Shown: positions 3 through 51,800 of the stretch, in pieces
Position numbering within the stretch: the stretch's first letter is position 1
Layout: the number at the start of each line of letters is the position of its first letter
Sequence record: SRR20825019_1453
Length of the DNA: 64,000 bases
Strand: one strand, 5' to 3'
Notes under the pieces: model-generated
Told to the model about the DNA's origin: nothing
What the model saw: the letters and a program-made list of their open reading frames with translations, nothing else
Database searches by the model: none
Made by a program: the position numbers and the translations under genes

Positions 3-566
3 ACATCAAGTAACAATACGGCTACTTTCACTATTGCGGGAGGTGCGGCAAACGGATGTGATTCTTTGGTTTCGCTTGATTTAACTATCAATACTGTTTC
101 TGACGTGACTACAACTACAGTAGGTGTTATCATCACTGCAAACAATGCTTCGGCAACGTATCAGTGGCTTGACTGCAACAATAATTTTGCTGTCATTAAC
201 GGTGAAACTAGTGCGTCGTTCGAGCCAACAGCAAACGGAAGCTACGCTGTTCAGTTAACAGAAAATGGCTGTGTGGATACTTCTGCGTGTGTTGCAATTA
301 CAACCATAGGGATTGTTGAAAATAGCTTTGGAAATAATTTCATGGTATATCCAAACCCAACAAATGGCAATTTTACGGTTGACTTAGGTTCTTCGTTGGA
401 TAATGTGGAAATCCAAATCTTGGATATAACAGGTAAGATAATTCAATCTTCACAGTATCAAAACGCACAATCGATTCAGCTCAACCTAAACGAGCCAACA
501 GGAGTTTATCTTCTAAAAATTGAATCGGATACTCACCGAGCAATTGTTCGCTTAGTAAAAGAATAG
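3..566 (+). CDS. C-terminal part of a T9SS (type A CTD) secreted protein, 5'-truncated by the window
   Basis: Frame is open from base 3 (TSSNNTATFTIAGGAANGCDSLVSLDLTIN). It has a YQWLDC Ig-like module and a T9SS CTD (VYPNP...GVYLLKI...RLVKE). Confidence 0.9.
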   Translation, partial: TSSNNTATFTIAGGAANGCDSLVSLDLTINTVSDVTTTTVGVIITANNASATYQWLDCNNNFAVINGETSASFEPTANGSYAVQLTENGCVDTSACVAITTIGIVENSFGNNFMVYPNPTNGNFTVDLGSSLDNVEIQILDITGKIIQSSQYQNAQSIQLNLNEPTGVYLLKIESDTHRAIVRLVKE

Positions 567-8806: not shown

Positions 8807-9973
8807 ATGCTAAATTTTGAATATTACAATCCAACTAGAATCGTTTTTGGAAAAGATCAGTTGGGAAGGCTGCCAGAATTATTGAATCAATTCGGAGCAT
8901 CAAAAATCTTACTGACATTTGGTGGTGGGAGCATCCAAAAAACAGGTTTATACGATCAAATCATAAAAGTGCTCGCTGATTTTTCTGTCGTTCCGTTTGG
9001 TGGAATCGAAGCGAATCCTGAGTTTTCTACCTTAATGAAGGCAGTGGATGTTGCACGATCTGAGAAAATCGATTTTATTCTTGCAGTTGGAGGCGGATCA
9101 GTGATCGATGGATCGAAGTTCATTAGTGGTGCAATTCATTATTCGGGAGATCCATGGGATGTCTTGGATAAAAAAGAGGGATGTAATTTCGATAAAGCGG
9201 TTCCTTTTGGTTCTGTTCTTACTTTGCCTGCAACGGGTTCTGAGGCAAATTCTGGTGCCGTGGTAAGTAGATCTGAAATGGAGCAGAAAAGAGCCATGGG
9301 AGGACCACAATTTTTTCCAATGTTTTCGCTTTGTGATCCAACCCAAGTAGCAACACTTCCAGAAAGACAAATTGCGAATGGTATCGTTGATGCATACATG
9401 CACACGCTTGAGCAATATTTGACGTATCCTACAGGTAATTTGCTGCAGGAGAGACAAGCGGAAGGCATTTTGTCAACATTGCTTGAGATTGGACCTAAAG
9501 TGATGAAGAATCCATTCGATTATGTGTTAGCTTCGAATCTAATGTGGTGCGCTACTCATGCCTTGAATGGCGTCTTGCGCTGCGGGGTTCCAACCGACTG
9601 GACAACACACATGATTGGACATGAATTAACGGCCTTTTATGGAATCGATCATGCACGAACACTTGCAATTATTGCACCGAGATTGTACGAAAATTGCTTG
9701 GACGAAAAACGAGATAAGCTCGCACAGTATGGCGAACGAGTCCTTGGATTAACGGGAGATAAGGACGATATTGCTAAGAAGGCAATCGTACAGACAGAAC
9801 AATTTTTCCAATCGCTTGGAATAGATACCAAGGTCTCGGATTATACATCTTCGACAGAAAACTTGGCGAAGAGAATCAGAAAAGTATTTGAAGATAGAAA
9901 TTGGATTGGAATGGGAGAAAGAGGTTCCATTACACCAGATCGCGTAGAACAAATTGTGAATGCTGCACTATGA
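8807..9973 (+). CDS. Iron-containing alcohol dehydrogenase (YqhD/BdhA-like, probably NADPH-dependent)
   Basis: GGGS, AVGGGSVIDGSK and TLPATGSE motifs; metal-binding HMIGHE and DHARTLA. Confidence 0.92.
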   Translation: MLNFEYYNPTRIVFGKDQLGRLPELLNQFGASKILLTFGGGSIQKTGLYDQIIKVLADFSVVPFGGIEANPEFSTLMKAVDVARSEKIDFILAVGGGSVIDGSKFISGAIHYSGDPWDVLDKKEGCNFDKAVPFGSVLTLPATGSEANSGAVVSRSEMEQKRAMGGPQFFPMFSLCDPTQVATLPERQIANGIVDAYMHTLEQYLTYPTGNLLQERQAEGILSTLLEIGPKVMKNPFDYVLASNLMWCATHALNGVLRCGVPTDWTTHMIGHELTAFYGIDHARTLAIIAPRLYENCLDEKRDKLAQYGERVLGLTGDKDDIAKKAIVQTEQFFQSLGIDTKVSDYTSSTENLAKRIRKVFEDRNWIGMGERGSITPDRVEQIVNAAL

Positions 9974-10998
9974 CTCAATTGAGTAAATTCTTTCAGTTTA
10001 ATGAAAAGCCGACGGAAGAGATTATTCAATTATTGGAATCCGTAACATTAGGTACCGATGGTGCGCATTATAAGCATCTCGACACAAGAAACCGAGTCAA
10101 CGAGCTGGATAATCCCCTTTTTTTGAGTCTGGAGCGCAATGCTAAAGTTTACGGGAACATTACCTTCTGCCGACGCGGAGAGAACTGGTACATCCGTTAT
10201 TTTGCCTTCGATTCTCTTGTCCAATCGGGAGGAAAGAAAAAATCCAACGCGAAATCAGGTGGATTGCGCAAGGAGCTCAATAACTATTTTGATGCAGTTT
10301 TGTCCTCAAAGAGCAATGAAGGGGTTAATTCTTTCTACGCATATATCGATCCGAGAAATGCAAAAAGTGTTTGGATGAGTGAAAACTTCGGCTTCGAAAA
10401 GATTGGTGAATTGGCAACACAAACGTTTAGTCGAACATCGCCGAGAAATTCAACGCGCGTTTTCAAAACGGATGATTGGAAAGAGATTTCATCGCTCGTA
10501 GAGCGTTTTTTTTCGAAACAACGTTATTTTTTTTCGGATCAGACAAGTAAACCCCCATTTTATGTGTTAAAGGAGGATAATGGAAGGATTCTGGGGTTTG
10601 CAAAGGTCACGATAGCAAATTGGGAAATAAAGCGCTTGCCGGGGAAGTTTGGTGGAGTTTTAGTTCGATTAATTCGTTACCTCCCAATTATCCGCAAGTT
10701 GATTCAACCACAAAATCACTCGTTTGTTGTACCAGAGGGAGTTTATGTTCAAAACAATGACCCAGCGTTACTCCAAGAATTGTTCGAGGGGATTTTATCT
10801 CAGGAAAGGAAGAAACTGATTATTTGGTGGGTTGATGTTAATTCAACGTTGTATTCATCGATTCGGAAGAAAGTCAAATGGGGATTACTGCATAAAATTC
10901 TTGGGGTAAATGCCGTAAATGTGGTTTCGAAATCAGCGAAAAAAATAACGTCCAGCTCAAAAGAAGTATTCTACACGAGCGGATTCGATTTCATTTAA
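9970..10998 (+). CDS. Hypothetical protein, possible GNAT-like fold
   Basis: The ATG at 9970 overlaps the upstream TGA (ATGA). WYIRYFAF and N-x-KS...FGFEKIG resemble acetyltransferase motifs. Confidence 0.6.
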   Translation: MTQLSKFFQFNEKPTEEIIQLLESVTLGTDGAHYKHLDTRNRVNELDNPLFLSLERNAKVYGNITFCRRGENWYIRYFAFDSLVQSGGKKKSNAKSGGLRKELNNYFDAVLSSKSNEGVNSFYAYIDPRNAKSVWMSENFGFEKIGELATQTFSRTSPRNSTRVFKTDDWKEISSLVERFFSKQRYFFSDQTSKPPFYVLKEDNGRILGFAKVTIANWEIKRLPGKFGGVLVRLIRYLPIIRKLIQPQNHSFVVPEGVYVQNNDPALLQELFEGILSQERKKLIIWWVDVNSTLYSSIRKKVKWGLLHKILGVNAVNVVSKSAKKITSSSKEVFYTSGFDFI

Positions 10999-11016: not shown

Positions 11017-11442
11017 TTAATCCAAAATATCCAAGACTTCTGGGTGTACTTCTACCGTGGCATCTACATACAATCGTTGAATAAAGGAATGGAAGAAGAT
11101 ACTATCGATTGCGAAATAGGCTAACATTACACCTAGAAGTGAGTACGTCTCGTTACCTAATCCGCCTTCAAAGACCATAAAACCAAGAAACACTAGAATA
11201 CTTCCAACAAAATGCATAAAAAAGGTACGCGTATGGAGTTCGTTTTTACTTGGTACTTTCTTCAAGTAGAAGTGTTGCAATACCAGAAACAAGACGATGA
11301 ATGGCAAGGAGCATAAAGCGGCCAACACGGTTGTAATTAGACCAATCCCAATTCCAAATAAACTACCGAAAATGAGTCCCGTAAGTAAAGTGAGTACCCA
11401 GCAAATGAAAAAGTGGTAAACTTTTAGTTTTTTGTTATTCAT
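11017..11442 (-). CDS. Hypothetical membrane protein
   Basis: 141-aa ORF with four hydrophobic segments. Confidence 0.7.
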   Translation of the reverse strand: MNNKKLKVYHFFICWVLTLLTGLIFGSLFGIGIGLITTVLAALCSLPFIVLFLVLQHFYLKKVPSKNELHTRTFFMHFVGSILVFLGFMVFEGGLGNETYSLLGVMLAYFAIDSIFFHSFIQRLYVDATVEVHPEVLDILD

Positions 11443-12572: not shown

Positions 12573-15122
12573 ATGCCTCAATTGACCAAGCCCATTACTA
12601 CAAACTTGTTTAGTTTTAAAACATTTCGCTCACCGGATAAAATTGATTTCAACGAGAAGGAAGAATTCTTTATTCATCATCCTGATGTAACACTGAGTGC
12701 ATTTAATCAATGTCCAATTCCAAGAGAAGGCGAGGGTTCAACTGATCAGCTTGACACATTTATCAATGGCTTCCAACCTGCAAAGAACTATAAAGAAATA
12801 AGAGGCATACACCCTGAATTGTACGACTTCTCATGTTTGCTCATGCAGCAGAAGAGAAACGACACTACGAAAAGAGAACTTAATGCAGAACTGCCTGAAG
12901 CTCTAGATGATGAGGAAATTTTAAAAGTTTGGGATGAATTGTTTGTTCAGACGGCTACTCAAGCATCCAAAACTGTACGGCAGGCTTGTATTCAGTTGAT
13001 AATTGCGCAGCATTATGTACGAAATAATAAAACCCTCGAATTAAGCGATGTATCAAAATTAGTGGTTGTCATCCCAGACGTTGTAATCGCTTGTTTCAAA
13101 CCGTGGAGATATTCCAATTGTGGAGGAGAAATGTTCGGAGTTCAAAATCTTGGTGTCCAAGAGTACAGAAGAGTTGAACAAACGCTTTGCTGCTATGTAC
13201 CTGGTGAAGTTTCTCACATCGAGAATATCATGGCACGAGAATACAAGGAAAAAAGTACACGTAACTTATTACGAACCGAGTACACCACAGAGATTACCAA
13301 TGAAACCGAAATTGAAAATATCAATGATACAACAACAACAGAACGGCATGAGTTGAGTTCTGAGGCTGCAAAGGAATTACAAAAGGACAAATCATTTGAT
13401 ATTAGCGGTTCTGTTACTGTCTCGAAAGACTCAAAAGCATTTGGAAGTATTTCTGCGAATGTAAGTTCGGGTTACAACAGTAGCACTTCCTCTTCTCAAT
13501 CGAATACCGAGGCAAAGAATTATGCCAAGGAAATCACAGAAAGAGCACTTGAAAGAGTGGTTCAAAAAACGACTGAGAAGCGCACCTTCAAAATGATTAG
13601 GGAGTTTGAAGAGAATAACAAACACGGTTTTGATAACACAAAAGGTGTTCAGCACGTTACGGGAGTTTACCGTTGGGTCGACAAAGTGTATGATAATGAA
13701 CTCGTCAACTACGGCAGACGTTTGTTGTTTGAAATCAGTGTGCCGAGTCCAGCTGAGTTTTACAAAAAAGCAATGGCATGGCAGTCGAAAACAGCGGAAT
13801 CAGCTGCTGCTGTGCTTACACCTCCTAAAACATTGGCAAATTTTGGTTTAAACTCTTCATCTGATATAAAGAATGATATTATCACTGCTGCAAACCAAGA
13901 ATACGGTACATCAATAGAAACATATACTGCTGAAGTCCGATATCAGGATGTTAGTTTTGGCGCTGAAACCAATCATTATCATGCAACGAAAACAGATGTT
14001 CGAAGTGCCATTTCAATTGAACCAGGTTTTGTGGCAGATAGAATAGATGGTATTGGAAGTTTTCAACATAACGGAAGTGGCAACACCAAAGCCTATTTGA
14101 GAATAAACATTGCGAATGCACAAGTCTATCGCGGAGATTACCAATCAGGTTCTAAGCAAACGGATAATTTTAATATCAACATTGACCTCTCTCCAAATGT
14201 TGTGGGATCTGCCTCGTTCTCTATTTCATACAGAAAGGTCTATAATTACAGCGGTTCATTTAAGGTGAAACTGATTTCCGATCCTGTCTTATACACCGAA
14301 TGGCAAGAAGAAACATTCTTAGCTTTACAAGCCGCTTATCAAGATAAATTAGATGCGTACAACGACGAATTAGCACTCCAGCAAGCAGCACAACAAGCCG
14401 AAGCAGATCAGCAGGAAAATGATAACTACAGTAATCATGGGATGAATCGTTTGATTGAAGAGCGCGAATTGAAACGCTTGTGCATTGAAATGATGAGCAA
14501 GCCTTATTGCTACGACATGGGGAAAAGTTTCAACAAATGCAAAACGTATGCTTGCAGTTCAGATTGTGGCGAAGTTGAAAACCAAGTAACCGAAGTTATT
14601 CAAAACAGAGAATTGGAAAAATACGCTGAGTTTATCAAGTTCTTCGAAACGGCGTTCCATTGGGAGATCTTTAGCTATGTTTTCTATCCGTATTACTATG
14701 GCGCAAAATGCAATTGGTCCGAATTATTGCAAACCAAAAATGACGATCCAATTTTTGAAGCATTCTTGCAAAGTGGAATGGCAAAACTCCTAGTTCCTGT
14801 TCGCCCACAATTTGAAAAAGCAGTAATGTGGTACATTGAAACGGGTGAAATTTACACTGACGAAAACCTTGTTCCCGAAATTGAAGATGATCGTTATTTG
14901 TCATTGCTGAAAGAATTGCAAAATCAAGAAGATATCAGAGTTGAAGGAAAGTGGAAAACACGTGTGCCTTCTGCCCTTACGATTATTCAAGCGAAATCAA
15001 CGTATTTGGAAGATGCAAAAGGCTTACCTTGTTGTGATGATGAATCTGAAGCTTTTGGAAGTGATGGACGTTTGTTGGAGAATTTAGCAACTGAGACTGA
15101 CCCAGTAACTCAACCTGAATGA
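12573..15122 (+). CDS. Large hypothetical protein; possible pore-forming/translocon component
   Basis: 849-aa ORF with no signal peptide or T9SS CTD. It has a Ser/Thr-rich alternating segment (aa ~273-312), a coiled-coil-like LQAAYQDKLDAYNDELALQQ stretch and many Cys. The gene is secure; the function is inferred. Confidence 0.6.
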   Translation: MPQLTKPITTNLFSFKTFRSPDKIDFNEKEEFFIHHPDVTLSAFNQCPIPREGEGSTDQLDTFINGFQPAKNYKEIRGIHPELYDFSCLLMQQKRNDTTKRELNAELPEALDDEEILKVWDELFVQTATQASKTVRQACIQLIIAQHYVRNNKTLELSDVSKLVVVIPDVVIACFKPWRYSNCGGEMFGVQNLGVQEYRRVEQTLCCYVPGEVSHIENIMAREYKEKSTRNLLRTEYTTEITNETEIENINDTTTTERHELSSEAAKELQKDKSFDISGSVTVSKDSKAFGSISANVSSGYNSSTSSSQSNTEAKNYAKEITERALERVVQKTTEKRTFKMIREFEENNKHGFDNTKGVQHVTGVYRWVDKVYDNELVNYGRRLLFEISVPSPAEFYKKAMAWQSKTAESAAAVLTPPKTLANFGLNSSSDIKNDIITAANQEYGTSIETYTAEVRYQDVSFGAETNHYHATKTDVRSAISIEPGFVADRIDGIGSFQHNGSGNTKAYLRINIANAQVYRGDYQSGSKQTDNFNINIDLSPNVVGSASFSISYRKVYNYSGSFKVKLISDPVLYTEWQEETFLALQAAYQDKLDAYNDELALQQAAQQAEADQQENDNYSNHGMNRLIEERELKRLCIEMMSKPYCYDMGKSFNKCKTYACSSDCGEVENQVTEVIQNRELEKYAEFIKFFETAFHWEIFSYVFYPYYYGAKCNWSELLQTKNDDPIFEAFLQSGMAKLLVPVRPQFEKAVMWYIETGEIYTDENLVPEIEDDRYLSLLKELQNQEDIRVEGKWKTRVPSALTIIQAKSTYLEDAKGLPCCDDESEAFGSDGRLLENLATETDPVTQPE

Positions 15123-16276
15123 TTATGGGAAAGAGTATTTTTGAATTAACAGATAAAACAGGTTATAGCAGCCGATGGGAAGAGGATTGGGAGAAAACTG
15201 AGTTAAAAAGTAATAATTCTTCCAAAGAATCCGCTGCATCTGGTTCAACCAAAGTAGTAATTTTAACGGAAGAAAGAGTCTTTGCAGTAAAAACCGATAT
15301 TCTGCTAAGGTTTAAATTTTATGGTCCAGATAGCTGGTATAACACTCCCGATTCTACTGTTGATTTAACGTCTTCAGACTCTACAGTTGATATTAAGTCC
15401 CCAGCAAAGTGGACAGTTGAAAATGGATGGGTATTTCTTGCTGAAATATCTAAGGATGAACCAGCCAAGGTAAAATTATATATAGCAATTGATGGAATCC
15501 GCAAGCACACTTTTGATGTTGAGTTTAAAAAATCTAAAGATGTGTTTACATTAACCGAAATAGATCGATTAACCGGTGAGTACAGCTATGTTGCTCAGTT
15601 TAATAATTTAGATGAACCGCCTGTTGAATATGAAGGAAACTATTGTATGCAGGGAGCTGATCGCGCAATTGGGAAGCTACTGAATAACTACTCAGATTTT
15701 TATTCTGTCGAGCACGGAACTCATAAGGTTACAAACTCCATTGATTTTAGTGCTGGAACAGGAAACACTTATCAAAGAGCTGGAACCATGAACTCCAAAG
15801 GATTTATACATTCTTCCTACGCGATTGATAATAAATATTGGAACGTCGATCACAACGAAAGAGAGAAAATAAGCTCTAAATATCCTCCATATTCAAATGC
15901 TCGGACATATGCTATTTCTAAAATGTATGACATAGTGTGGGTATCCAAATCTAATGGAACTAACTTCTATCTTTGGTTAAAAAGTAAATGCGATAACACT
16001 GAACCTGGTTATCATGTATACTATCTATCTATTGTGGATGGATTTCATACACAGGTTTTAGTCATTAATAATTCCGATAGAAATAATCCTAAGTATGAAA
16101 TTTGGGATGACCATGGAATTACTTCATCAAAAGGCAAATTGAAGGATATTCCTGAAGGTATAAATATACAAACAAGTTCAATGTTTACCTCTTCATGTTT
16201 GATTCGATTAAAAAATAATACCTCAGATAAATGGGATAGTCAAAAGCTTAAAGTATGGAAAATCAAAAAAAAATAA
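15119..16276 (+). CDS. Hypothetical protein; candidate papain-like (Cys-His-Asp) effector
   Basis: ATGA overlap with the upstream stop. NYC(176)MQGA, GFH(310)TQVLVI and YEIWD(330)DHG motifs; no signal peptide. Confidence 0.55.
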   Translation: MIMGKSIFELTDKTGYSSRWEEDWEKTELKSNNSSKESAASGSTKVVILTEERVFAVKTDILLRFKFYGPDSWYNTPDSTVDLTSSDSTVDIKSPAKWTVENGWVFLAEISKDEPAKVKLYIAIDGIRKHTFDVEFKKSKDVFTLTEIDRLTGEYSYVAQFNNLDEPPVEYEGNYCMQGADRAIGKLLNNYSDFYSVEHGTHKVTNSIDFSAGTGNTYQRAGTMNSKGFIHSSYAIDNKYWNVDHNEREKISSKYPPYSNARTYAISKMYDIVWVSKSNGTNFYLWLKSKCDNTEPGYHVYYLSIVDGFHTQVLVINNSDRNNPKYEIWDDHGITSSKGKLKDIPEGINIQTSSMFTSSCLIRLKNNTSDKWDSQKLKVWKIKKK

Positions 16277-16977
16277 TTGGTTTTTTACTCATCATTTTAT
16301 TTTTAATGAGTTGTTCTAATGAGCCTACTAGGAAAAAGGATAAATCTTCTGTGGATAATAAAAACTCGTCCTTTTCTATAGAACGATATTTGGGTAGAAT
16401 TAAAAACAAAGACTCAAAACGAATTTTTGAAGTTCGATCCATAATCGCACCCGATTCAAAAGTTAATGGATATTTCTCTATCGAGGACAATGTTGCACAA
16501 TTTACCCATTTGATTAACCCATCTGGAGACACACTCAAAGTTCATGAGACAATTGACTCTCTTACTTTCAGGGTTGTTGGTCTATCCGCTGAAGAAAAAC
16601 GGAAAATTAGAAACCCCTATTTCTTTGATGGAAGAATGCGCTGTTACTATTACGATAAAACCAATTTCTACGCGTATCTTGACTTAGACTCCTCCGAATT
16701 CCGTCTACTCGGCAAAAAGAGTGAAGCAGAATTACTTGGAGGGCATTTTGTCCGTGTCGGGAACCAAATTTTTGTTCAGGGGGTTCCAATTGATTCAGCA
16801 GATATTAGCACATTTCACACAATGGAAGTTTTTTGGATGGAGAAGACTGAATGGTCTCGAACAATTGGACTAGATAATAACCATATTTACGTCTCAGAAA
16901 AAATCTTGACCAAAGAACGATTTGACAAATTGATTGCTCCAAATGACTCTTTAAGGAAAATCTACTTTCCAAAATAG
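16255..16977 (+). CDS. Lipoprotein with DKNYY-like C-terminal repeats; candidate immunity protein
   Basis: Lipobox FLMSC; YYDKTNFY, IDSADISTF and GLDNNHIY segments; overlaps the upstream gene by 22 bp. Confidence 0.6.
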   Translation: MENQKKIIGFLLIILFLMSCSNEPTRKKDKSSVDNKNSSFSIERYLGRIKNKDSKRIFEVRSIIAPDSKVNGYFSIEDNVAQFTHLINPSGDTLKVHETIDSLTFRVVGLSAEEKRKIRNPYFFDGRMRCYYYDKTNFYAYLDLDSSEFRLLGKKSEAELLGGHFVRVGNQIFVQGVPIDSADISTFHTMEVFWMEKTEWSRTIGLDNNHIYVSEKILTKERFDKLIAPNDSLRKIYFPK

Positions 16978-21924: not shown

Positions 21925-22917
21925 ATGAAAACGAAAAGAACATCACTCAATGATATTGCTAAGGCACTTAACGTGTCAAAAGCGACCGTATCTTTTGTAC
22001 TAAATGACAAGGGTGATCAGTTCAATATCAGCAAGGAGAAACAGCGACTGATTAAGGAAAAAGCTAAGGAGTTATTGTACGTTCCTAATTTTTTCGCGAA
22101 GAGCTTGCGTCAAGGCGAAACTAATACGATTGGTTTAGTCCTTCCTGACATATCCAATGCGTTTTACGCCGAACTTTCTAAAACAATTCAAGAGAAATTG
22201 TATGCGGAAGGGTACAGCACTTTTATCGTGAACACAAACGATAATGAGGAAGTTGAGAAAATATTGATGAATGAGCTTATTCAACGAAGTATCGACGGAA
22301 TGATTATCGCTCCAAGTAATAACATTAACGAGTTAATTCCTATTCTTCATTCAACTCACATTCCTGTTGTTTTTGCTGATCGTCCGGGAGATGAAAATGC
22401 AGATTTTGTTGGTGTAGACAATAAGAAGGAAACAAGTTTACTCGTAGGGAAATTTTCTATTCAACCCAAGAAGTTGGCAGTTTTAGCACCTATTAAAAAC
22501 TCGGTAATCACCATTTTGAAACGCATTGAAGGAACTCAAATGGCGTGCGCTGAAGCTGGAATTCCTTTCTCTCAAGTAAATTTATCTGATAACGAAGACG
22601 AATTTGTCAAATTACTGAAAAAGGAAATCGACAATGGTGTAGATTCATTCATTGCCCTGAACAATCAATGTACATTAAGTGCATTGGCTGGGTTCAGAAA
22701 GCTTGGACTTCAACTTCCAAAAGATGTTCGTTTAATTTCATTTGATGATAGCTTAGCGTTCGAATACATGTATCCGCCAGTTTCTGCGCTCAGACAACCT
22801 GTAAACGATATTGGATTGAAGTCTGTAGCTCGTTTGTACGAACGAATCAAGGAAACCAAAGATCCAGGGAAACACTTTATGTTGGATTGTACATTTATCG
22901 CTAGAGAAACGCACTAA
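21925..22917 (+). CDS. LacI family transcriptional regulator
   Basis: SLNDIAKALNVSKATVSFVLN HTH; YVPNFFAKSL hinge; ISFDD. Confidence 0.93.
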   Translation: MKTKRTSLNDIAKALNVSKATVSFVLNDKGDQFNISKEKQRLIKEKAKELLYVPNFFAKSLRQGETNTIGLVLPDISNAFYAELSKTIQEKLYAEGYSTFIVNTNDNEEVEKILMNELIQRSIDGMIIAPSNNINELIPILHSTHIPVVFADRPGDENADFVGVDNKKETSLLVGKFSIQPKKLAVLAPIKNSVITILKRIEGTQMACAEAGIPFSQVNLSDNEDEFVKLLKKEIDNGVDSFIALNNQCTLSALAGFRKLGLQLPKDVRLISFDDSLAFEYMYPPVSALRQPVNDIGLKSVARLYERIKETKDPGKHFMLDCTFIARETH

Positions 22918-24719
22918 TTGCCTGAAACCATAAATCTTTTCGTTTCCATATTGCCTTTTGCACTCGTAAATCGAGCAATGTAAACACCTGAAGACAAGAA
23001 CGCGATTCGTAAACTTCTGTCGGAAATCAATTCCTCGGATTCATATACAACTTGCCCCATTTGGTTATACAAACTGAAAGATGAAGCCTCAGTTAATTCG
23101 GCATGGATTAAATCCTGAGTAACGCTAAAAGAAGAAATTAAAGATGTTTCAGAAGAACATATTTTTCCTTTGATTAACTCAGATGTCTCGAACGACCCAT
23201 CGAAATCGATAGCTCTAATTCGATAATAGCTGTCACTTTCCATAACGACATTTAGTGAATAAGCATTTGTTTCGTCCGATGTTCCAACGGCTTTTACCTC
23301 GCCAATTGGGTAGAAAGTAACTCCGTCAGCTGTTTTTTCTACAACGAAGTAGTCCAAATTTCTCTCTGATAATGTTTCCCATTGGAAGACTTGATTTTCT
23401 CCTTCGCAATTTGCTTCGAAGCGCGACATTTCGGTTGGAAGAATAATAACCGTTTCAGGACAAAAATATTGTTGGTTATTCAACGCTCCTGTGGATGCTG
23501 TTGCTCCCCAATAAACTAGACTGTTGCCTCCAAAAACATTCGTTACAAAATCATAACTACATGTCAAACGAAGCGCTCCATTAAAGTAAACGCTCAATTG
23601 CTGCAACGGTGCGTTCCATTGGATCATAACAGGATATGTATTTCCGTCATCTATGTTTGCTCCATTTGGTTTAGCTGTCACAGGTCCACAAAAGGGAGTT
23701 CCGTTGGCATGATCACCGTCAATTTCAATGGCGATGTGATCTGCGAGCATATCATAAACGTGTATAGGGAAATCATTATCGTAGGTATCAAACTCGATTG
23801 AAACAGCATTCGAAATACCTCCAGCACCCATGTGCTTCCCATTGTCTCCACAGGCAGTTGATGAACTGGATTGAAAGGTAAATGTTGAACCATCTGCTCC
23901 TAAAACAGATGCTCCAAAATAATATTCTAAAGACAAAGAAAACGAGCTTGCAAAATCAATTTGTTTTCCGCTCCAGGCACATCCGCCCTGACTGTTTTTT
24001 GCCGAAGTTAATTCAATGCAATCACGACCTGAAACATTGATATCGGTAGCAGTTCCGTTGAGTGTCCAACATCCGCCGATATATGCCGGAAGCGTAGCGC
24101 TTTGAATAGTAGATGTCCCGCATGCGGATGTGTATCGAATTGAATACGTTGCTCCATCAACACCATTGGTAATATTTCCTGTGGTTGTATTCAATACAGA
24201 ACCATCACTAGGGTTAGATGGATACCAAGAAAATGTTCCACCTGGTGTACCTGTAATGGTTGTAATTACTCCGTTACAAACTGCATCCATATAGAAAGTA
24301 GGTGAGGTTTGTCCTCCACGACGGTATGCCATAGTCCCTTGGTAAGATCCAGAGGTTCCACAACCCGCATCTGTAATTAAAACGCGAATTGTTCCCGTGA
24401 GATTTGCAGTCCATGAGATTTGAGAACATCCCGATGAATACCCTGCAAAAGCTAGTTGGGAAGTGCCATTTGAATTAAGGATGGTGATTTCTGGATAAAG
24501 ATTTCCACTAGAACCTCCATTTGAGCAGAAAGTAAAATCATACGTTCTACCGCATTGAACATTAATTGTGTAGTAGCGACCGTCTCTAACGGACTGAGTT
24601 TGGAAATTGCTTGAAGGGTAGAGATTTCCGTAGGAACTTCCACCGGTGCATGCGTTCGAAAAATTGGAAATAATTAGGGTAATCCAAATAATGGAAAGGC
24701 TTTTCAGGAGAGTGTGCAT
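22914..24719 (-). CDS. T9SS-secreted protein with a legume (L-type) lectin domain
   Basis: Signal peptide; GADGSTF, SIEFDTY, DHIAI and YWGATASTG lectin motifs; ILPTEMSRF linker and a CTD (LYNQMGQ...GVYIARF). Confidence 0.85.
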   Translation of the reverse strand: MHTLLKSLSIIWITLIISNFSNACTGGSSYGNLYPSSNFQTQSVRDGRYYTINVQCGRTYDFTFCSNGGSSGNLYPEITILNSNGTSQLAFAGYSSGCSQISWTANLTGTIRVLITDAGCGTSGSYQGTMAYRRGGQTSPTFYMDAVCNGVITTITGTPGGTFSWYPSNPSDGSVLNTTTGNITNGVDGATYSIRYTSACGTSTIQSATLPAYIGGCWTLNGTATDINVSGRDCIELTSAKNSQGGCAWSGKQIDFASSFSLSLEYYFGASVLGADGSTFTFQSSSSTACGDNGKHMGAGGISNAVSIEFDTYDNDFPIHVYDMLADHIAIEIDGDHANGTPFCGPVTAKPNGANIDDGNTYPVMIQWNAPLQQLSVYFNGALRLTCSYDFVTNVFGGNSLVYWGATASTGALNNQQYFCPETVIILPTEMSRFEANCEGENQVFQWETLSERNLDYFVVEKTADGVTFYPIGEVKAVGTSDETNAYSLNVVMESDSYYRIRAIDFDGSFETSELIKGKICSSETSLISSFSVTQDLIHAELTEASSFSLYNQMGQVVYESEELISDRSLRIAFLSSGVYIARFTSAKGNMETKRFMVSGN

Positions 24720-43064: not shown

Positions 43065-43195
43065 GATGCAAAATTAGACTATTTATTTCTGACGCTGAGA
43101 AATTTAACTTCTTTTTGAATATTTATAACTCAAGAGAGATCTTTCTGTTACACTGAACACGATTTTTCTCCTTTGAACGTTGTACTTTCGTGAAG

Positions 43196-46100
43196 ATGTC
43201 TTGGCTTCGGCGATTTTTGTTGATGATTCTACTATTGATCATTCCTTATTTTGGGATGAGTCAACTTTCGAACTTGAGAGAGAAAACCGTCGCGTGGAAC
43301 GATACGATTCAGCTCGATACCTTGACGATTTACCCAAATTCATTTGAGATTTCTTGTGGCAATGTGGTGATGGATGCGGCCAGTTACAAGCTCGATTACG
43401 CCAGAGCACGTCTGCTTTTACTCGAAAAATGCACGGATTCGATAAATGTGCGCTATCGAGTTTTACCGATGGATTTGTCGCACAAGTACTTTTTACGCGA
43501 CACTTCGCTAATTTACACAAGAGATAAGGGAATCCGAGATCGTTTTTTAATTGCTGGAGGAACCCAAACTACGGATATCTTCGGTGGAACGGGACTTACT
43601 AAATCTGGTAGTATTTCGCGAGGAATCTCGTTTGGAAATAATCAAGACTTGGGTGTAAACTCTACGCTAAACCTAGAGCTATCGGGACAAATCGCGCCAA
43701 ACCTAAAGTTACTAGCTTCGGTTTCGGATGATAATTTACCGATTCAACCACAAGGAAACACAAATACTTTACGTGAGTTTGACCAAGTATTTATCCAAGT
43801 TTACAATGATCAGTTGAAGCTAATAGCGGGAGATTTTTGGCTTTATAAACCGTCTGGTTACTTTATGGTGTATAAAAAGCGCGCACAAGGATTAACGGTC
43901 AACTATGCGTGGCAGGCAGATTCGAATCGCGTATGGAAAACCCAAGCGAGTGGAGCATTATCGCGAGGTAAATTTCAGCGACAAATTATCCAGGGAGTGG
44001 AAGGAAATCAAGGTCCATATCGATTACAAGGAGCGCAAAACGAACAGTTCATTATTGTCCTCTCAGGAACTGAACGGGTGTATATTGACGGAAGACTTGT
44101 TGAACGTGGGCAGGAGTTTGATTATGTGATCGACTACAATACTTCAGAAGTAACATTCACTGCTCGAAATCAAATTACCAAGGATTCGAGAATCGTGATT
44201 GAGTTTCAGTATTCTGATCAGAATTACGCGCGTTCTTTGATGCAATCTTCGACAACCTTCGAATCTAAGCGACTGAAATTCTGGATCAATGGTTATTCTG
44301 AACAAGATGCGAAGAATCAAACGCTGCAGCAAGAATTGTCTTTGAGTCAACGGAAACGACTTTCGGAAATTGGTGATTCAGTGGACTTAGCGAGAATTTC
44401 AAGCATCGATTCAATTGGCTATTTTGAAAATCAGAACCTCTACAAATTAATCGATTCGTTGGGTGTGGACTCCGTTCTTGTACATTCCGTAAATCCTGAT
44501 TCAGCGTTTTATCGGGCAACGTTCCAGTTTGTTGGACAAGGAAAGGGTGATTATGTCTTTAGCAATTTTAACGCGCTTGGAAAAGTATTCAAATGGGTGG
44601 CGCCAGTTGCTGGAATTCCCCAAGGAGATTACGAACCTTCACGATTAATAGTTACTCCACAGCAAAGACAAATGGTGACGTCAGGTGTAGAAATTCGCTT
44701 ATCGAAAGTGCTAAAATTGGAAACGGAATTGGCGTATTCGAAGCTTGATCTAAATACATTTTCACCTTTTGATCGAAAAGATGATAAAAGCTTTGGAGCG
44801 ATTAGTAGGTTGATCGGCGATATTCCATTGTCACGAGATTCTTTACCCAATTGGAAGTTGAGAACAAAAGTAGAGATTGAAGCACGAGACCGGTTCTTTT
44901 CACCGATTGAACAATACCGATCCGTAGAGTTTGATCGCGATTGGAATGTTAGAAATAAAGGATACACGGGAAATCAGGTAGCCTCAGTTCTCGGAACCAA
45001 TTTCATTCACCGAAAATATGGGAATTTGAATCTTGAAGGACAACATTATGTAATTGGTGGCGATTATCAGGGAATGCGTGCTGCAAGTGATGGGAAATGG
45101 AAGCAGAAGGGATTTTCAGCGAGTTGGGATGGAAGTTTTTTGTCCAGTAAAACCGCAGAACTTAATGAGTATTTACGACATCGGGCAGAAATCTCCCAAC
45201 AAGTCGGTTGGTTTAAGTTTGGATACAAAGACGATCACGAGTTAAATAAATTCCGAACAACACTTCTTCAACCTTCGAGTTATCAGTTTTTTGATTACCA
45301 ATTTTTTGTTGCCAATAGTGATTCTATTAAAAATAATTACAAGCTGTTTTACCGCGAACGATATGATCAACGCTCTGATAGCAGCTCACTTGTCAATGTT
45401 GCAAAAGCGACTTCGATTGGTGGTGAAGTGAGTTTCACAGAATGGAAAAATCAACGACTTACCGTTTTGTCGAGTTACCGTGAACTGAAAATTCTGGACA
45501 ATCAATTAATTAATCAAACTCCAGAAAATACATTGTTGGGTCGAATAGAATATGAATTGAGAGCCTTTAAAAGTGCCATAACGGTGAATAATTTTTACGA
45601 AGTTGGATCAGGTCTTGAGTTGAAACGAGAATTTCTCTACGTTAAAGTTAACGACGGTCAGGGAGTGTACACTTGGATAGATTACAACGGAGATGGAATA
45701 AAAGATTTGAATGAATTTGAGATCGCTCAGTTTGTGGACCAAGCGAGTTATATCCGCGTGTTTACGCCAAGTAACGAATACGTTCAAACTTATTCAAATG
45801 AGTTTAATCAGTCTGTTTATTGGAGGCCAGAACGATTGTGGGCGAACAAAAAAGGAGCGTTGGGTGTAGTTGCTCGTTTTTCAGATCAGGCGCGACTTCG
45901 CGTAAACAGAAAAACAAATCTGTTCAATGTAAACGAGGCGTTCAATCCATTTTCTGGCGTCATAGAAGATTCTAACTTGATTGCCACAAATTCAAACATT
46001 AGGAATACGCTCTTTTTTAATCGAACGTCGAGCATTGTTAACGCGGAATATACATTTCAAAATACAGTCGGAAAAACACTCTTGGCGAATGGATTCGATT

Positions 46101-46633
46101 CCCGATTTGAGCAATTCAATGAAATCGCCGTTCGATGGAACATTAAAAGAAAATTTACCATTGAAACGACAATTAAGGATGGCGTAAAGAATGCAGAGGC
46201 CGATTACACATCAGGAAGAAACTTTAGGTTGTCATATTCTTCGTTAGAGCCTAGCTTTATTTATCAGCCATCAACGGTTTTTAGAATTACGTTAGACGCT
46301 CGACTTTCGGAAAAATCAAACGCAGAAGAACTCGGTGGGGAAGTGGCAAAAGTTTCCGAATTGGGTTCAACGTTTAAATACAACCAAGCTCAAAAAGGAA
46401 GTTTGCAAGGAGGTTTCAAAATGATTTCTATCGATTATGATGGTGTGCAAAATTCAGCATTGGGTTTCGAAATGCTTGAAGCACTGAAACCTGGAGTGAA
46501 TTTCACTTGGAATGTGGGGTATCAGCGCTCACTTTCGAATAGCTTACAATTGTCGATTTTATACAACGGTAGAAAATCCGAAGCAAGTAGATTCATTCAT
46601 TCAGGAGGAATGGAAATCAGAGCATTTTTTTAA
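43196..46633 (+). CDS. Large hypothetical outer-membrane beta-barrel-like protein
   Basis: Signal peptide; extensive alternating beta pattern; C-terminal Phe (MEIRAFF). ORF track starts at 43190; the ATG at 43196 is preferred. Confidence 0.75.
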   Translation: MSWLRRFLLMILLLIIPYFGMSQLSNLREKTVAWNDTIQLDTLTIYPNSFEISCGNVVMDAASYKLDYARARLLLLEKCTDSINVRYRVLPMDLSHKYFLRDTSLIYTRDKGIRDRFLIAGGTQTTDIFGGTGLTKSGSISRGISFGNNQDLGVNSTLNLELSGQIAPNLKLLASVSDDNLPIQPQGNTNTLREFDQVFIQVYNDQLKLIAGDFWLYKPSGYFMVYKKRAQGLTVNYAWQADSNRVWKTQASGALSRGKFQRQIIQGVEGNQGPYRLQGAQNEQFIIVLSGTERVYIDGRLVERGQEFDYVIDYNTSEVTFTARNQITKDSRIVIEFQYSDQNYARSLMQSSTTFESKRLKFWINGYSEQDAKNQTLQQELSLSQRKRLSEIGDSVDLARISSIDSIGYFENQNLYKLIDSLGVDSVLVHSVNPDSAFYRATFQFVGQGKGDYVFSNFNALGKVFKWVAPVAGIPQGDYEPSRLIVTPQQRQMVTSGVEIRLSKVLKLETELAYSKLDLNTFSPFDRKDDKSFGAISRLIGDIPLSRDSLPNWKLRTKVEIEARDRFFSPIEQYRSVEFDRDWNVRNKGYTGNQVASVLGTNFIHRKYGNLNLEGQHYVIGGDYQGMRAASDGKWKQKGFSASWDGSFLSSKTAELNEYLRHRAEISQQVGWFKFGYKDDHELNKFRTTLLQPSSYQFFDYQFFVANSDSIKNNYKLFYRERYDQRSDSSSLVNVAKATSIGGEVSFTEWKNQRLTVLSSYRELKILDNQLINQTPENTLLGRIEYELRAFKSAITVNNFYEVGSGLELKREFLYVKVNDGQGVYTWIDYNGDGIKDLNEFEIAQFVDQASYIRVFTPSNEYVQTYSNEFNQSVYWRPERLWANKKGALGVVARFSDQARLRVNRKTNLFNVNEAFNPFSGVIEDSNLIATNSNIRNTLFFNRTSSIVNAEYTFQNTVGKTLLANGFDSRFEQFNEIAVRWNIKRKFTIETTIKDGVKNAEADYTSGRNFRLSYSSLEPSFIYQPSTVFRITLDARLSEKSNAEELGGEVAKVSELGSTFKYNQAQKGSLQGGFKMISIDYDGVQNSALGFEMLEALKPGVNFTWNVGYQRSLSNSLQLSILYNGRKSEASRFIHSGGMEIRAFF

Positions 46634-48892: not shown

Positions 48893-51800
48893 ATGATGGT
48901 AAAATGGTTGAGTATTATAATTATACTGCTTACAACGGGATGGGCAATGAGTCAGAATTCTAGACAAGAAGTTCTTGAGCTTTACGACTTCAACAAGGAT
49001 TGGAAAACCGTCGATTCATTAGAAAATGAAGGGCTTTATCGTCAGGCTTTGGAAAAAGTCAATCAAATTTTCGATCGAGCTTGTGCAGAAGGACAACATC
49101 CGCAGATAATAAAATCTACGCTTTTCAACCTTAAATACAATTCCAACCTAGAGGAAGAAGATGTTGTGAACAGCATTATTCGTTTGGAAAAAATGATCGG
49201 TGACGCGCCTTCACCATCTAAAGAAATCTTGCATTCGCTCACGGGAGAAGTGCTTTGGAGTTATTACAATCAGCACCGTTGGAAATTTGAGGAAAGAACG
49301 TACGTTGCAGACGCAAACAATACAGATATTAGAACTTGGGATCTCAAACGAATTGTTGAACGCGTAATTTTCCATTATACAAAATCCGTAGCCAATGGAT
49401 CTTTTCTAACTCAGTACAATCTAGCGGATTATACTGAGATTCTTGATGAGGACTTTTCTCCAGAAACATTTCATTCTAGACCGTCGATTTACCATTTTCT
49501 CGCGTACCGAGCAATCGATTTTTATAAGTCAGCTTCTTTTGAAATCCCTGGAGCGGCAGAAACAAAAGCATTAGATGATCCGGCCTTTTTTGGAACTTCA
49601 TCGGAATTCTTGAAATTAGAGATTTCCGGATACCAAGATTCGCTGAATCCAACATTTAAAGCTCTGCAAATTTTCCAGCTTTTGTCGAAGTTACATGAGA
49701 ATGAAAAGAGCAATCAAGCAAAATTTTCAGCAGAATTGGAACGAGTTCTTTTTGTAAATGCAAAAGGCGTAATGTCGAATAAAGACGACTTGTACTATGC
49801 TGCACTCGTGAGAATTGAAAATGAAAACAAGCAAAAAGATTACTCAACCGAGGCGACGTACTTTCGCGCATCTTACCATGCTCAATTGGCGAGTAATTAT
49901 AGCTATATGGACGATACAACCCATCAATGGGAGTATGTAGAAGCGTTAAGATTATGTGACCTTGCGATAAGTACACACAAAGAATCATTTGGAGCAAGAC
50001 AATGTGCGTTTTTAAAAAATGGAATTCTTGCAAAATCATTATCTGTGAGAGGGGTTGAAGCAATTGCTCCTAAAACGCCAACAACGGTTTTCATTGAGTA
50101 CCGAAACACCGACAAGCTTTACATGAAAATAGTTCCGTTTGATCACACACGAAAATTAAGTGGTGAGTTACTCATTCAGGAACTTGAAAAAGCAGATGGA
50201 ATTGTGTCAAAAACGGTTGAACTAAATCTTCCAAATGATCATCAAGTACACTCGACGGAAGTATTATTAGAACCATTGAAAAGTCAATTTTACTATGTGG
50301 TTGTATGCACAGATCCGTCATTTAACATAGAAGGAACAGGGTTTTCTTACATTCCGTTATGGGTGAGTAATATTACCTATCAATCTCGAAGAACAGACGA
50401 TGATCAGAAAATTCTGGTTTCAGATCGAACAAGTGGCGCGCCAATTAAGGGTGCAGAGGTGAGTGTATGGTATACGAAGTATAATTATCTAACGCAGTCC
50501 TATACAGATAAACTTCTCGGGAAATATAAAACAGATGAAAAGGGACTAACATCGTTCAAACCAACAAGTGATGGTAATTCTTACACTGTTTCCGTAAAAG
50601 CAAATGGGGAGGAATATGCACCGTTTTCAGCGTTATATGCATACAGATACAAACACAATCAGAAAAAATCAGAAATTACAACGCTTTTTACAGATCGTAA
50701 AATTTATCGTCCTGGACAATCAATTTACTTCAAAGGAATTATAATTGAGTATGATGGAGACGAAAGAACGCTCGTTAAAAATGCGAAACGAACCGTACAA
50801 TTTTTAGATAATAATTCTCAAGAGATTGGAAAGTTGGAAGTTACATCCAATGATTTTGGATCCTTCGAAGGGACGTTTGAAGCTCCAGTTGGCGTATTGA
50901 CAGGGCACATGAGAATCAGAACGGAAACAGGAAGTACGTATTTTAATGTAGAAGAATACAAACGTCCAAAGTTTTCGGCTGAGATGCTTCCAATTCAGGG
51001 AGAATTCAACTTTTCGGATACCATTCACGCAAAGGGAAGCGCAAAAGCGTATGCAGGAAACGCCATTGATGGAGCTGAAGTATCCTACCGTGTAACAAGA
51101 ACCGTTTCGTACCCAAGATATTATTATTGGTGTGTTTGGTATGGAAATTTTAGTGAGGATGAAATCATTTCTGGGACCACAATCACAAAAGAAGACGGAA
51201 CCTTTGAAATCAATTTTCCAGCGTTGCCAGATGTTACGATCTTGAAAGAACGATCTCCGATGTTTAATTATACCATTTATGCCGATGTAACAGACATTAA
51301 TGGTGAAACGCATTCTACAAGTTCTGTGGTGACTGTTGGATATAAAAGCCTTCAACTTTCAAATAATATCGGAGAGGAGTTGTCTGCGAGCGATGACTTT
51401 ACGCTACGAGTTTACACGACAAACTTGAGTGGAGAATCCGTTAAAGCGAAAGGAAAGCTTACCATTGAGAAACTAGTTTCAAACAACAGAGTTCTTTACG
51501 AACGTTTTTGGCAAGCTCCAGATTTACCACTATTGTCTGAGACTGATTTCAAGAAACAGTTCCCAACTATTCAATTCGGAAATGAGAATGATTGGCATTA
51601 CTGGAAATCAGAAAAGAAGGTTTTCTCAACAGAATTTAATACAGACAAAACAGATTCTATTTTCATCGAAGGATTGAAAAAATGGTCTCCAGGTGTATAT
51701 CGTTACCAAGCAACAGCGATTGATAAAAACGGCGAGGAAGTACTTGATGAGAAGTATTTTGTAGTGTATGACGCTGCTGCGAAAGTAATTCCTGTGAGCG

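Follow-up and report, generated by a model that had tools for sequence, protein, structure and literature searches.

The 64,000-nucleotide stretch of sequence record SRR20825019_1453 analysed here (hereafter, the window) holds a gene for a protein of 849 amino acids (aa) that carries no database annotation, and the question raised by this locus is what such a protein does. The original prediction, made from the letters alone, had seen in it a possible pore-forming beta-hairpin within a modular layout, and had proposed an oligomeric pore or translocon of the aerolysin or protective antigen (PA) type whose middle domain binds a receptor. Our analysis of the gene, its relatives and their neighbours favours another role. 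With a probability of about 0.5, the 849-aa protein (hereafter, the carrier) belongs to a polymorphic antibacterial toxin system as its conserved partner without toxic activity, the toxin itself being the product of a separate and exchangeable gene directly downstream (hereafter, the effector gene). Given its linkage to swappable toxin and immunity genes, the carrier most likely serves to deliver a bacterial weapon, and the odds are somewhat better than even that its family has a dedicated role in delivering polymorphic toxins between cells.

Genes behind the carrier

Relatives of the carrier are numerous: a search of 50%-identity clusters gave 3405 at E ≤ 0.001, 1634 of them still at E ≤ 1e-30, and 1486 were present among the scored candidates of a 90%-identity database. 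Contigs from one genome per species gave 359 stretches with a relative and the context analysis was carried out on the best 80 of these 359, almost all of which belong to the Bacteroidota (Flavobacteriales, Chitinophagales and Cytophagales). The proteins closest to that of the window, at 77% identity, come from metagenome-assembled genomes of Crocinitomicaceae and Fluviicola. The conserved unit of the family spans query residues ~186-826; many relatives are longer (~1110-1250 aa) through an extended N-terminal region and match the query mainly from about residue 186 onwards, and a few have a C-terminal extension. The 80 loci comprise 44 with such a long form and 36 with a short form, the window belonging to the latter. 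A tblastn search located further relatives on plasmids, with 20-35% identity over ~70% of the query, in Bacillus thuringiensis, Sinorhizobium/Ensifer, Streptomyces, Tsukamurella, Cupriavidus and the haloarchaeon Natronorubrum.

Open reading frames (ORFs) were called in the 80 loci and then clustered, and the proteins encoded downstream of the carrier were scanned with Pfam at E ≤ 0.001. A same-strand ORF lies directly behind the carrier in 72 of the 80 loci, the other eight ending at or near the end of the contig. Toxin or hydrolase domains were recognised in 25 of these 72 first-downstream proteins, with a C-terminal placement in 24 of the 25, and span 11 Pfam families or family groups: Tox-MPTase4 (6), EndoU (3), Het-C (3), Amidase_2/3 (3), Toxin-deaminase/YwqJ-deaminase (3), DUF3289 (2), Peptidase_C39-type (2), GH19 (2) and WHH/colicin DNase (1). 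The others are SUKH proteins at two loci, a DUF6734 protein at one, 42 proteins with no match and two with weak matches that were judged spurious. Known trafficking domains (those of type V, VI and VII secretion systems, RHS/TcdB, MuF, PVC metallopeptidase and TANFOR) were found neither on the carrier nor on the 72 effectors.

Following Zhang et al. 2012 (PMC3482391), polymorphic toxins are recognised by variable C-terminal toxin domains, an immunity gene downstream and a trafficking domain. The variable C-terminal toxin joined to a conserved N-terminus is found here in the downstream gene and not in the 849-aa protein, and immunity-like genes stand behind the toxin genes. The findings speak for a carrier of a separately encoded effector and not for a self-contained toxin, the genomic context of effector and immunity-like genes linking the protein with toxin delivery. 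Among 65 second-downstream ORFs, seven encode SUKH-type immunity proteins, one an ankyrin protein and one a DKNYY lipoprotein. Split effectors account for three more, which correspond to their WHH ends, and another two encode additional effectors (an MPTase4 and a muramidase).

The putative immunity proteins also appear to be matched to the compartment of the toxin. By a simple signal-peptide check on the ORFs behind effectors, an N-terminal hydrophobic signal was found in 9 of 13 ORFs behind effectors of the envelope type or the dn385 type, seven of them with a lipobox cysteine, as against 1 of 13 ORFs behind nuclease, deaminase or MPTase4 effectors, where no lipobox was found. Immunity placed in the compartment in which the toxin would act is the hallmark of toxins that enter a cell from without.

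The first 220 residues of 73 first-downstream proteins, including that of the window, were compared by BLAST. The N-termini form two large groups, of 28 and 25 members, which are joined to many different C-terminal domains and are both found with short-form as well as long-form carriers; the effector of the window groups with 27 other downstream proteins. A motif common to many of the toxins reads "SIFEFADKFGYxSPF", and in alignment A2 the N-termini of 31 effectors align on MxxxSIFxxADxxGYxSPF, with (A/E)DEYWKSSPFGE as a variant. The effector of the window starts MIMGKSIFELTDKTGYSSRWEEDW and carries its own version of the motif (Table 1). No SPF tag is present in the downstream proteins of the plasmid relatives from other phyla. 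A search of a big protein database with effector residues 1-45 returned one near-identical protein only, the region being too short for that database. As a side observation that was not weighed heavily, the start of the tag (Φ-F-x-F; IFEF...SPF) resembles the N-terminal strand of the carrier, LFxFxTxRxP; the two could fill equivalent strand-addition sites or share one export step.

In the window, the carrier, effector and lipoprotein genes make up a tight and minimal three-gene unit, within which the effector gene is translationally coupled to the carrier gene. At two other loci (L016 and L013) the carrier is followed by homologues of both the effector and the 240-aa lipoprotein, and at a third (L007) the effector homologue alone was detected. 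The 385-aa effector has only 14 relatives in the big protein database against the 1486 of the carrier. It has no Pfam match and its C-terminal domain has no sequence match in the PDB; C176 and H310 are invariant in 15 sequences, and an Atlas feature gives a lead, and a lead only, to Peptidase_C58/C39 (score 0.90). The most likely candidate for this domain is a papain-like hydrolase that would act in the envelope. In the 240-aa protein, a signal peptide of the lipoprotein type ends in ...LFLMSC, and a DKNYY match falls just short of the threshold (24.4 bits, cut-off 25).

The arrangement extends to the distant relatives on plasmids (loci L081-L086, including Bacillus thuringiensis HD-771 p01, Sinorhizobium meliloti pB, Streptomyces aurantiacus, Tsukamurella and Natronorubrum), where a same-strand gene lies directly behind the carrier. 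In Natronorubrum this gene encodes a patatin phospholipase; the downstream genes of the other plasmid loci have no family match.

The carrier itself ties to no trafficking family found in four family libraries and has no solved relative. Pfam and NCBIfam gave no match at E ≤ 1, including the Aerolysin and ETX_MTX2 families of Pfam (0 at E ≤ 1); PHROG has no family for it (best E 0.098), none of the three operon proteins matched a PADLOC-DB v2 family at E ≤ 1, and the PDB gave no sequence match by phmmer or by profile. A Pfam scan of 15 long-form relatives gave no meaningful domain, an ESM Atlas search with the carrier led to unnamed clusters from Actinomycetota and Pseudomonadota only, and tblastn against 50,697 phage genomes gave no match. 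No description of the family was found in the literature, also when searched by the RefSeq accessions of six relatives, within a scope that left aside bioRxiv supplements and subscription journals. The nearest reports concern the TANFOR (PMC7073777) and MuF (PMC11699363) polymorphic toxins, both of which differ from the carrier family. The logic of polymorphic toxin, immunity and trafficking is already known; the trafficking component present here is not.

Predicted architecture of the carrier

Two AlphaFold models were generated, one from 43 sequences with a predicted local distance difference test (pLDDT) value of 67 and another from 72 more diverse sequences (alignment A4) with a pLDDT of 79.6 and a predicted template modelling score of 0.64. 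Column statistics were taken from an alignment of 150 diverse homologues (A3), with identities to the query down to ~34%. The elements of the protein and of its operon are listed in Table 1.

Table 1. Coordinates of the three-gene operon, of the elements of its products and of other ORFs of the window
Feature	Residues	Position	Strand	Basis or remark
Carrier gene, 849 aa, ATG start		12573..15122	+	ORF list; short-form family member, without database annotation
N-terminal strand motif I..LFxFxTxRxP	8-21	12594..12635	+	Nearly invariant; strand modelled at 9-19
Helical N-terminal domain	~26-179	12648..13109	+	Helices, pLDDT ~85-95
Conserved core	190-391	13140..13745	+	Secondary structure in model; invariant columns
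Tip element: helix 256-275, amphipathic hairpin, Ser-rich linker, helix 306-331		13338..13565	+	Helices, pLDDT ~72-89
Amphipathic beta-hairpin: strand 274-284, turn 285-289, strand 290-301		13392..13475	+	Column statistics, 150 homologues
Jelly-roll beta-sandwich	455-569	13935..14279	+	Strands in both models, pLDDT ~87-93
Single 46-residue helix	571-616	14283..14420	+	AlphaFold model
Conserved alpha/beta C-terminal domain	622-805	14436..14987	+	pLDDT ~80-96; then conserved GLPCC
Effector gene, 385 aa		15119..16276	+	Start overlaps stop of carrier gene by 4 nucleotides
Effector N-terminal motif MGKSIFELTDKTGYSSRWEEDW	3-26	15125..15196	+	Variant of SIFxxADxxGYxSPF
Lipoprotein gene, 240 aa, candidate immunity protein		16255..16977	+	Overlaps effector gene by 22 nucleotides
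365-aa ORF without family		9901-10998	+	Overlaps end of Fe-alcohol dehydrogenase gene
141-aa ORF		11017-11442	-	By eye resembles a multi-pass membrane protein
601-aa protein with legume-lectin (L-type lectin) beta-barrel domain		22917-24719	-	E 1e-40
1147-aa ORF		43190-46630	+	Without Pfam match
2047-aa bacterial alpha-2-macroglobulin		48893-55033	+	MG2, A2M bait-region and bMG10 domains

The N-terminal strand motif is nearly invariant in the family. F15, R19 and P21 occupy 137, 127 and 129 of the 150 rows of A3, respectively, the remainder being gaps, and LFxFxTxRxP is retained in relatives from Bacillus, Sinorhizobium, Streptomyces and Tsukamurella. The helical domain that follows is variable, with a mean top-residue frequency of 0.37, and is replaced by the longer N-terminal region in the ~1150-aa long forms. 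The core consists of two very long strands of ~30 residues each (190-220 and 362-391) that bracket an inserted tip, and contains most of the invariant residues: Q203, Y208, N218, E223, E344, H351, N355, R367, W368, D370, Y380 and P391. The insertion also includes a Thr/Glu-rich segment (225-256) that is modelled with low confidence. That AlphaFold is least certain about the most conserved region would be compatible with a structure formed only in an assembly.

The tip carries the hairpin on which the original prediction was based. Both the 849-aa ORF and the alternating segment at residues 273-312 (nucleotides 13389-13508), reading KSFDISGSVTVSKDSKAFGSISANVSSGYNSSTSSSQSNT, are present as it described, and the Thr/Glu-rich stretch upstream of the hairpin (about residues 233-262) can likewise be read in the translation. 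In the first strand, the fraction of hydrophobic residues in A3 is 0.53/0.93/0.61/0.88/0.94 at positions 275/277/279/281/283 and at most 0.15 at 274/276/278/280/282/284; in the second it is 0.99/0.87/0.69/0.63/0.87 at 293/295/297/299/301 and at most 0.33 at 292/294/296/298/300. The polar face is made up mainly of Ser, Gly and Asn, and the turn tolerates insertions and deletions across homologues. The alternation is kept across the 150 homologues and is therefore a property of the family and not a chance feature of a single sequence. It is also visible by eye in the relatives from Bacillus, Sinorhizobium, Streptomyces, Tsukamurella and Natronorubrum, the core motifs and the hairpin standing at the same place in relatives from other phyla. 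The two strands have the length taken to span a bilayer, although their pLDDT is below 50. That the hairpin forms a membrane-spanning beta-barrel is a tentative proposal and, on balance, a doubtful one.

The original prediction of a beta-rich middle domain is borne out by the strands at 455-569. Foldseek searches with both models against the PDB, and with the better model against BFVD, listed matches that are all jelly-rolls: nanovirus and birnavirus capsids, globular heads of C1q, heads of influenza haemagglutinin, the tail-needle knobs of Sf6 and HS1, tail-fibre and baseplate domains and Ena subunits. As Foldseek did not report query ranges, the matches were assigned to the sandwich at 455-569 by inference. 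They cover ~115-150 aligned columns with probabilities of 0.9-1.0, identities of 4-17% and a query-normalised TM of ~0.1. The target-normalised TM is at most 0.51, with a nanovirus capsid; it lies at 0.41-0.49 with the C1q head and at 0.35 with the needle knob of Sf6. Folds of this kind are used as receptor-binding heads, in agreement with the type of middle domain that had been proposed.

The jelly-roll is moreover the most variable folded part of the protein, with a mean top-residue frequency of 0.30 in A3 compared to 0.64-0.70 in the core and 0.58 in the C-terminal domain. The hypervariability that was put forward as a check on the original prediction is evident in two homologues close to the carrier of the window: P0015 is 91% identical in the core and 90% in the C-terminal domain and only 24% in residues 421-570, and P0008 is 89% and 93% identical in these domains and only 35% in the same interval. 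By sequence, the middle domain thus behaves as a swapped module. Such a mosaic pattern is typical of the specificity domains of tail fibres and bacteriocins, and the chances are about even that the jelly-roll is the specificity determinant of the carrier.

A coiled coil had been proposed next to the middle domain; what the model confirms there is a helix and no more. The C-terminal domain holds the aromatic segment FFETAF..YPYYY (FFETAFHWEIFSYVFYPYYYG, residues 690-710) and the invariant residues F690, F691, E692, W697, Y702, P706, Y707, P819 and C820. The description of this terminus as aromatic and Cys-rich holds for a CC pair at 820-821 (GLPCC; ~15030-15035) and for a Cys-rich insert of variable length at about residues 646-667 (~14508-14573), and fails for the aromatic segment itself, which has no Cys. 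Another conserved CC pair lies in the core at 206-207 (LCCYVPGE; ~13188-13193). Only the Bacteroidota branch has the CC pairs and the Cys-rich insert, the first pair being absent from the relatives in other phyla; a disulphide or a metal site may be involved.

Genomic setting and possible route of exit

The island that holds the operon in the window is located between the housekeeping genes pth and asnS. Among the genes of the 64-kb window there are none of a type VI secretion system (T6SS), a contractile injection system or a prophage, and a promoter and terminator scan together with a reading of the spacer upstream of the operon revealed nothing distinctive. The 365-aa and 141-aa ORFs, which immediately precede pth, are without relatives in the 80 loci. 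The 1147-aa ORF was considered as a long-form paralogue of the carrier and was rejected, being unrelated to the 849-aa protein.

The setting of the long forms is different from that of the window. A gene with helix-turn-helix (HTH) and Peptidase_S24 domains (neighbour cluster 1) is found upstream and divergent in 27 of the 80 loci, within the long-form subfamily, and the 6-kb flanks of the 44 long-form loci contain CHAP genes in 17, holin genes in 15 and tail-collar genes in 15, as against none of the three in the same flanks of the 36 short-form loci. Neighbour cluster 35 is a peptidoglycan-binding/M15 peptidase. The S24 repressor and the lysis genes beside the long forms suggest a repressor-controlled, lysis-dependent release, comparable to that of colicins and of the cassette of Yen-Tc. 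At two long-form loci (L049 and L065) a SUKH gene, and at a third (L036) a 157-aa ORF without family, stands directly behind the carrier and is followed by CHAP, holin and tail-collar genes. In 5 of the 80 loci (L030, L009 and L042 among them), a tyrosine integrase (cluster 22) is present a few kb downstream of the module, which hints that some copies reside on mobile islands.

Weighing the explanations

Several observations weigh against a carrier that delivers toxins between cells. Carrier and effector both lack a signal peptide, and no lysis or export genes occur within the stretches examined for the window and the other short-form loci. The segment of highest hydropathy over 19 residues in the carrier (157-175) is part of a domain whose fold is predicted with confidence. 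Model confidence is low for the hairpin (pLDDT <50 at 275-278 and 286-299) and for parts of the core, and outside the jelly-roll Foldseek listed no structural neighbour that would support a pore. On the side of the effectors, no toxin or hydrolase domain could be recognised in 47 of the 72 first-downstream proteins, the N-terminal motif could be aligned in 31 of the 73, with several large groups ('MHAHEYG..' and others) lacking it, and no immunity genes were recognised beside the plasmid relatives outside the Bacteroidota. At L036, L049 and L065 no effector stands between the carrier and the genes that follow; either the effector has been lost there or the carrier may be active alone.

The last point would suit a stand-alone pore-forming toxin of the aerolysin or PA kind, as originally predicted, in which the protein oligomerises, the Ser-rich hairpin builds a barrel and the pore itself kills; the conservation of the amphipathic hairpin and the variable jelly-roll head would suit it as well. 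This explanation is nevertheless very unlikely, because homology is absent, the topology is another and effector genes are almost always present. Kinship to aerolysin and PA found no support in sequence or fold, the same being true of the ETX/MTX2 and leukocidin families, as none of these was among the Foldseek matches listed; the hairpin, flanked by two helices, caps a long beta ribbon, a topology other than that of aerolysin or PA; and 69 of the 72 loci have an ORF other than the SUKH and 157-aa ones behind the carrier, 25 of them recognisable toxins or hydrolases, with translational coupling in the window. The lack of a signal peptide and of nearby export genes in the window speaks for a cytoplasmic adaptor, chaperone or loading factor that is not exported and passes effectors on to secretion machinery with genes at another locus, the T6SS of Bacteroidota being an example. 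The effector-specific N-terminal motifs favour it too, since loading through adaptors typically relies on such motifs, as in the MIX and adaptor systems of the T6SS. The adaptor is nonetheless unlikely because the family has spread to monoderms and an archaeon and because of its hypervariable head, which is hard to explain on an internal chaperone: Bacillus, Streptomyces, Tsukamurella and haloarchaea, in all of which relatives occur, are not known to have a T6SS or a type IX secretion system. In addition, no secretion-system gene was present among the shared neighbour clusters of the 80 loci, of which only the larger were annotated.

An anti-phage abortive-infection pair, in which the large protein senses infection by its variable domain and releases the toxin inside the producer, would account for two-gene operons on plasmids and islands, for the patatin phospholipase among the effectors, for a hypervariable domain resembling a sensor and for the finding that no immunity gene was recognised outside the Bacteroidota. 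It is decidedly unlikely because of the immunity genes and the peptidoglycan-hydrolase effectors: the former are matched to the toxin compartment, including periplasmic lipoproteins for envelope-acting effectors, and the latter, without signal peptides, make little sense for killing from within; the search of PADLOC also gave no match. A remnant of a phage or tailocin, with the carrier as a structural protein resembling a tail fibre or needle and the toxin genes as phage cargo, is the most improbable of these alternatives. The tail-fibre, tail-needle-knob and baseplate jelly-rolls found by Foldseek, the S24 repressor, holin, CHAP and tail-collar genes near the long forms and the integrase in five loci point in that direction, and the family's absence from the phage genomes and from PHROG stands against it, as do the lack of capsid, portal, terminase and tube genes in the annotated neighbour clusters and the housekeeping genes on both flanks of the operon.

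Comparison with known systems places the carrier close to several of them in logic and apart from each in its parts. Like the VgrG/PAAR cargo islands of the T6SS, the loci have a large conserved protein followed by a C-terminally swapped effector and a cognate immunity gene, with the same effector repertoire (amidases, GH19, phospholipase-like Het-C, EndoU, HNH/WHH, deaminases and MPTase4) and SUKH immunity. Unlike them, the carrier has no VgrG, Phage_GPD, PAAR or Hcp domain in Pfam or NCBIfam and no spike among the Foldseek matches listed, the annotated shared neighbours include no T6SS genes and relatives occur in monoderms and an archaeon. Colicins and pyocins share the logic of targeting, translocation and toxin with an immunity gene, and the lysis cassette and S24 (LexA/CI-like) repressor adjacent to long-form relatives recall lysis-dependent release; here, however, the toxin is a separate polypeptide, the carrier has no colicin or pyocin domain and the short-form locus of the window has neither lysis gene nor repressor. 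In Tc (ABC) toxin complexes, too, the roles are divided between a large conserved translocator and receptor-binding subunit and an adjacent polymorphic toxic cargo. TcA, TcB and RHS domains are however absent here, the carrier is much smaller and, in place of the alpha-helical channel of TcA, it has a beta-hairpin as the candidate membrane element. A release by holin and endolysin ('type 10') has been described for Yen-Tc of Yersinia entomophaga (PMC10101115).

With beta-pore-forming toxins the carrier has in common a hairpin of ~11+12 residues with a Ser/Gly/Asn polar face and an adjoining variable beta-sandwich. It differs from aerolysin/ETX-MTX2, haemolysin/leukocidin and anthrax PA in having no detectable sequence or fold homology, PA14 and Binary_toxB giving no Pfam match and not being among the Foldseek matches listed, and its hairpin is set between two helices at the tip of two ~30-residue strands. 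In aerolysins, by comparison, the pre-stem hairpin packs on the sheet of an elongated beta fold, and in PA the 2beta2-2beta3 hairpin belongs to domain 2. The MuF prophage toxins (Bxa/Apk2; PMC11699363) are polymorphic toxins of Bacteroidales with an N-terminal trafficking part, downstream immunity genes and lysis-competent elements. They resemble the carrier system in their polymorphism and their immunity genes and differ in that the MuF domain is fused to the toxin and is part of the phage head, the conserved part here being a separate 849-aa protein; no Phage_Mu_F domain was found by Pfam in the 72 effectors. The C1q/TNF and viral or tail-fibre heads match the middle domain of the carrier in Foldseek, the resemblance being at fold level only with 4-17% identity.

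If the carrier is indeed the delivery partner of a polymorphic toxin, its action may proceed as follows. The carrier would bind the effector via the N-terminal motif of the latter, possibly by strand addition beside its own similar N-terminal strand, and the complex would leave the producer, in the ~1150-aa long forms by way of the adjacent holin/CHAP lysis cassette under the divergent HTH-S24 repressor. Choice of the target cell would fall to the jelly-roll. The long beta ribbon, tipped by the helix-hairpin-helix element, would oligomerise and insert into the target membrane, giving the effector access to the periplasm or cytoplasm. Binding, export, receptor recognition, oligomerisation of the stalk and insertion of the tip are steps that we infer. 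A bolder and rather doubtful possibility is that the family as a whole is an unrecognised self-contained toxin delivery device of bacteria and archaea, with docking by a tag, a swappable head, a beta stalk driven into the envelope and the effector passed through. Such a device, if real, would dispense with a multi-gene secretion apparatus and could serve monoderms, diderms and archaea alike as producers.

The genomic context presented here ties thousands of proteins without an entry in Pfam, NCBIfam, PADLOC or PHROG to antibacterial toxins, and the three-gene operon of the window is compact enough to be tested as a unit. Should the role of the carrier be confirmed, its short and portable N-terminal tag on the effector and its modular targeting domain would be directly testable, the protein would offer a new fold for structural work and, if the hairpin truly forms a pore, a new class of translocating pore former. 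It would also represent a new trafficking route among interbacterial weapons and would explain how many orphan 'hypothetical' toxins of the Bacteroidota are deployed.

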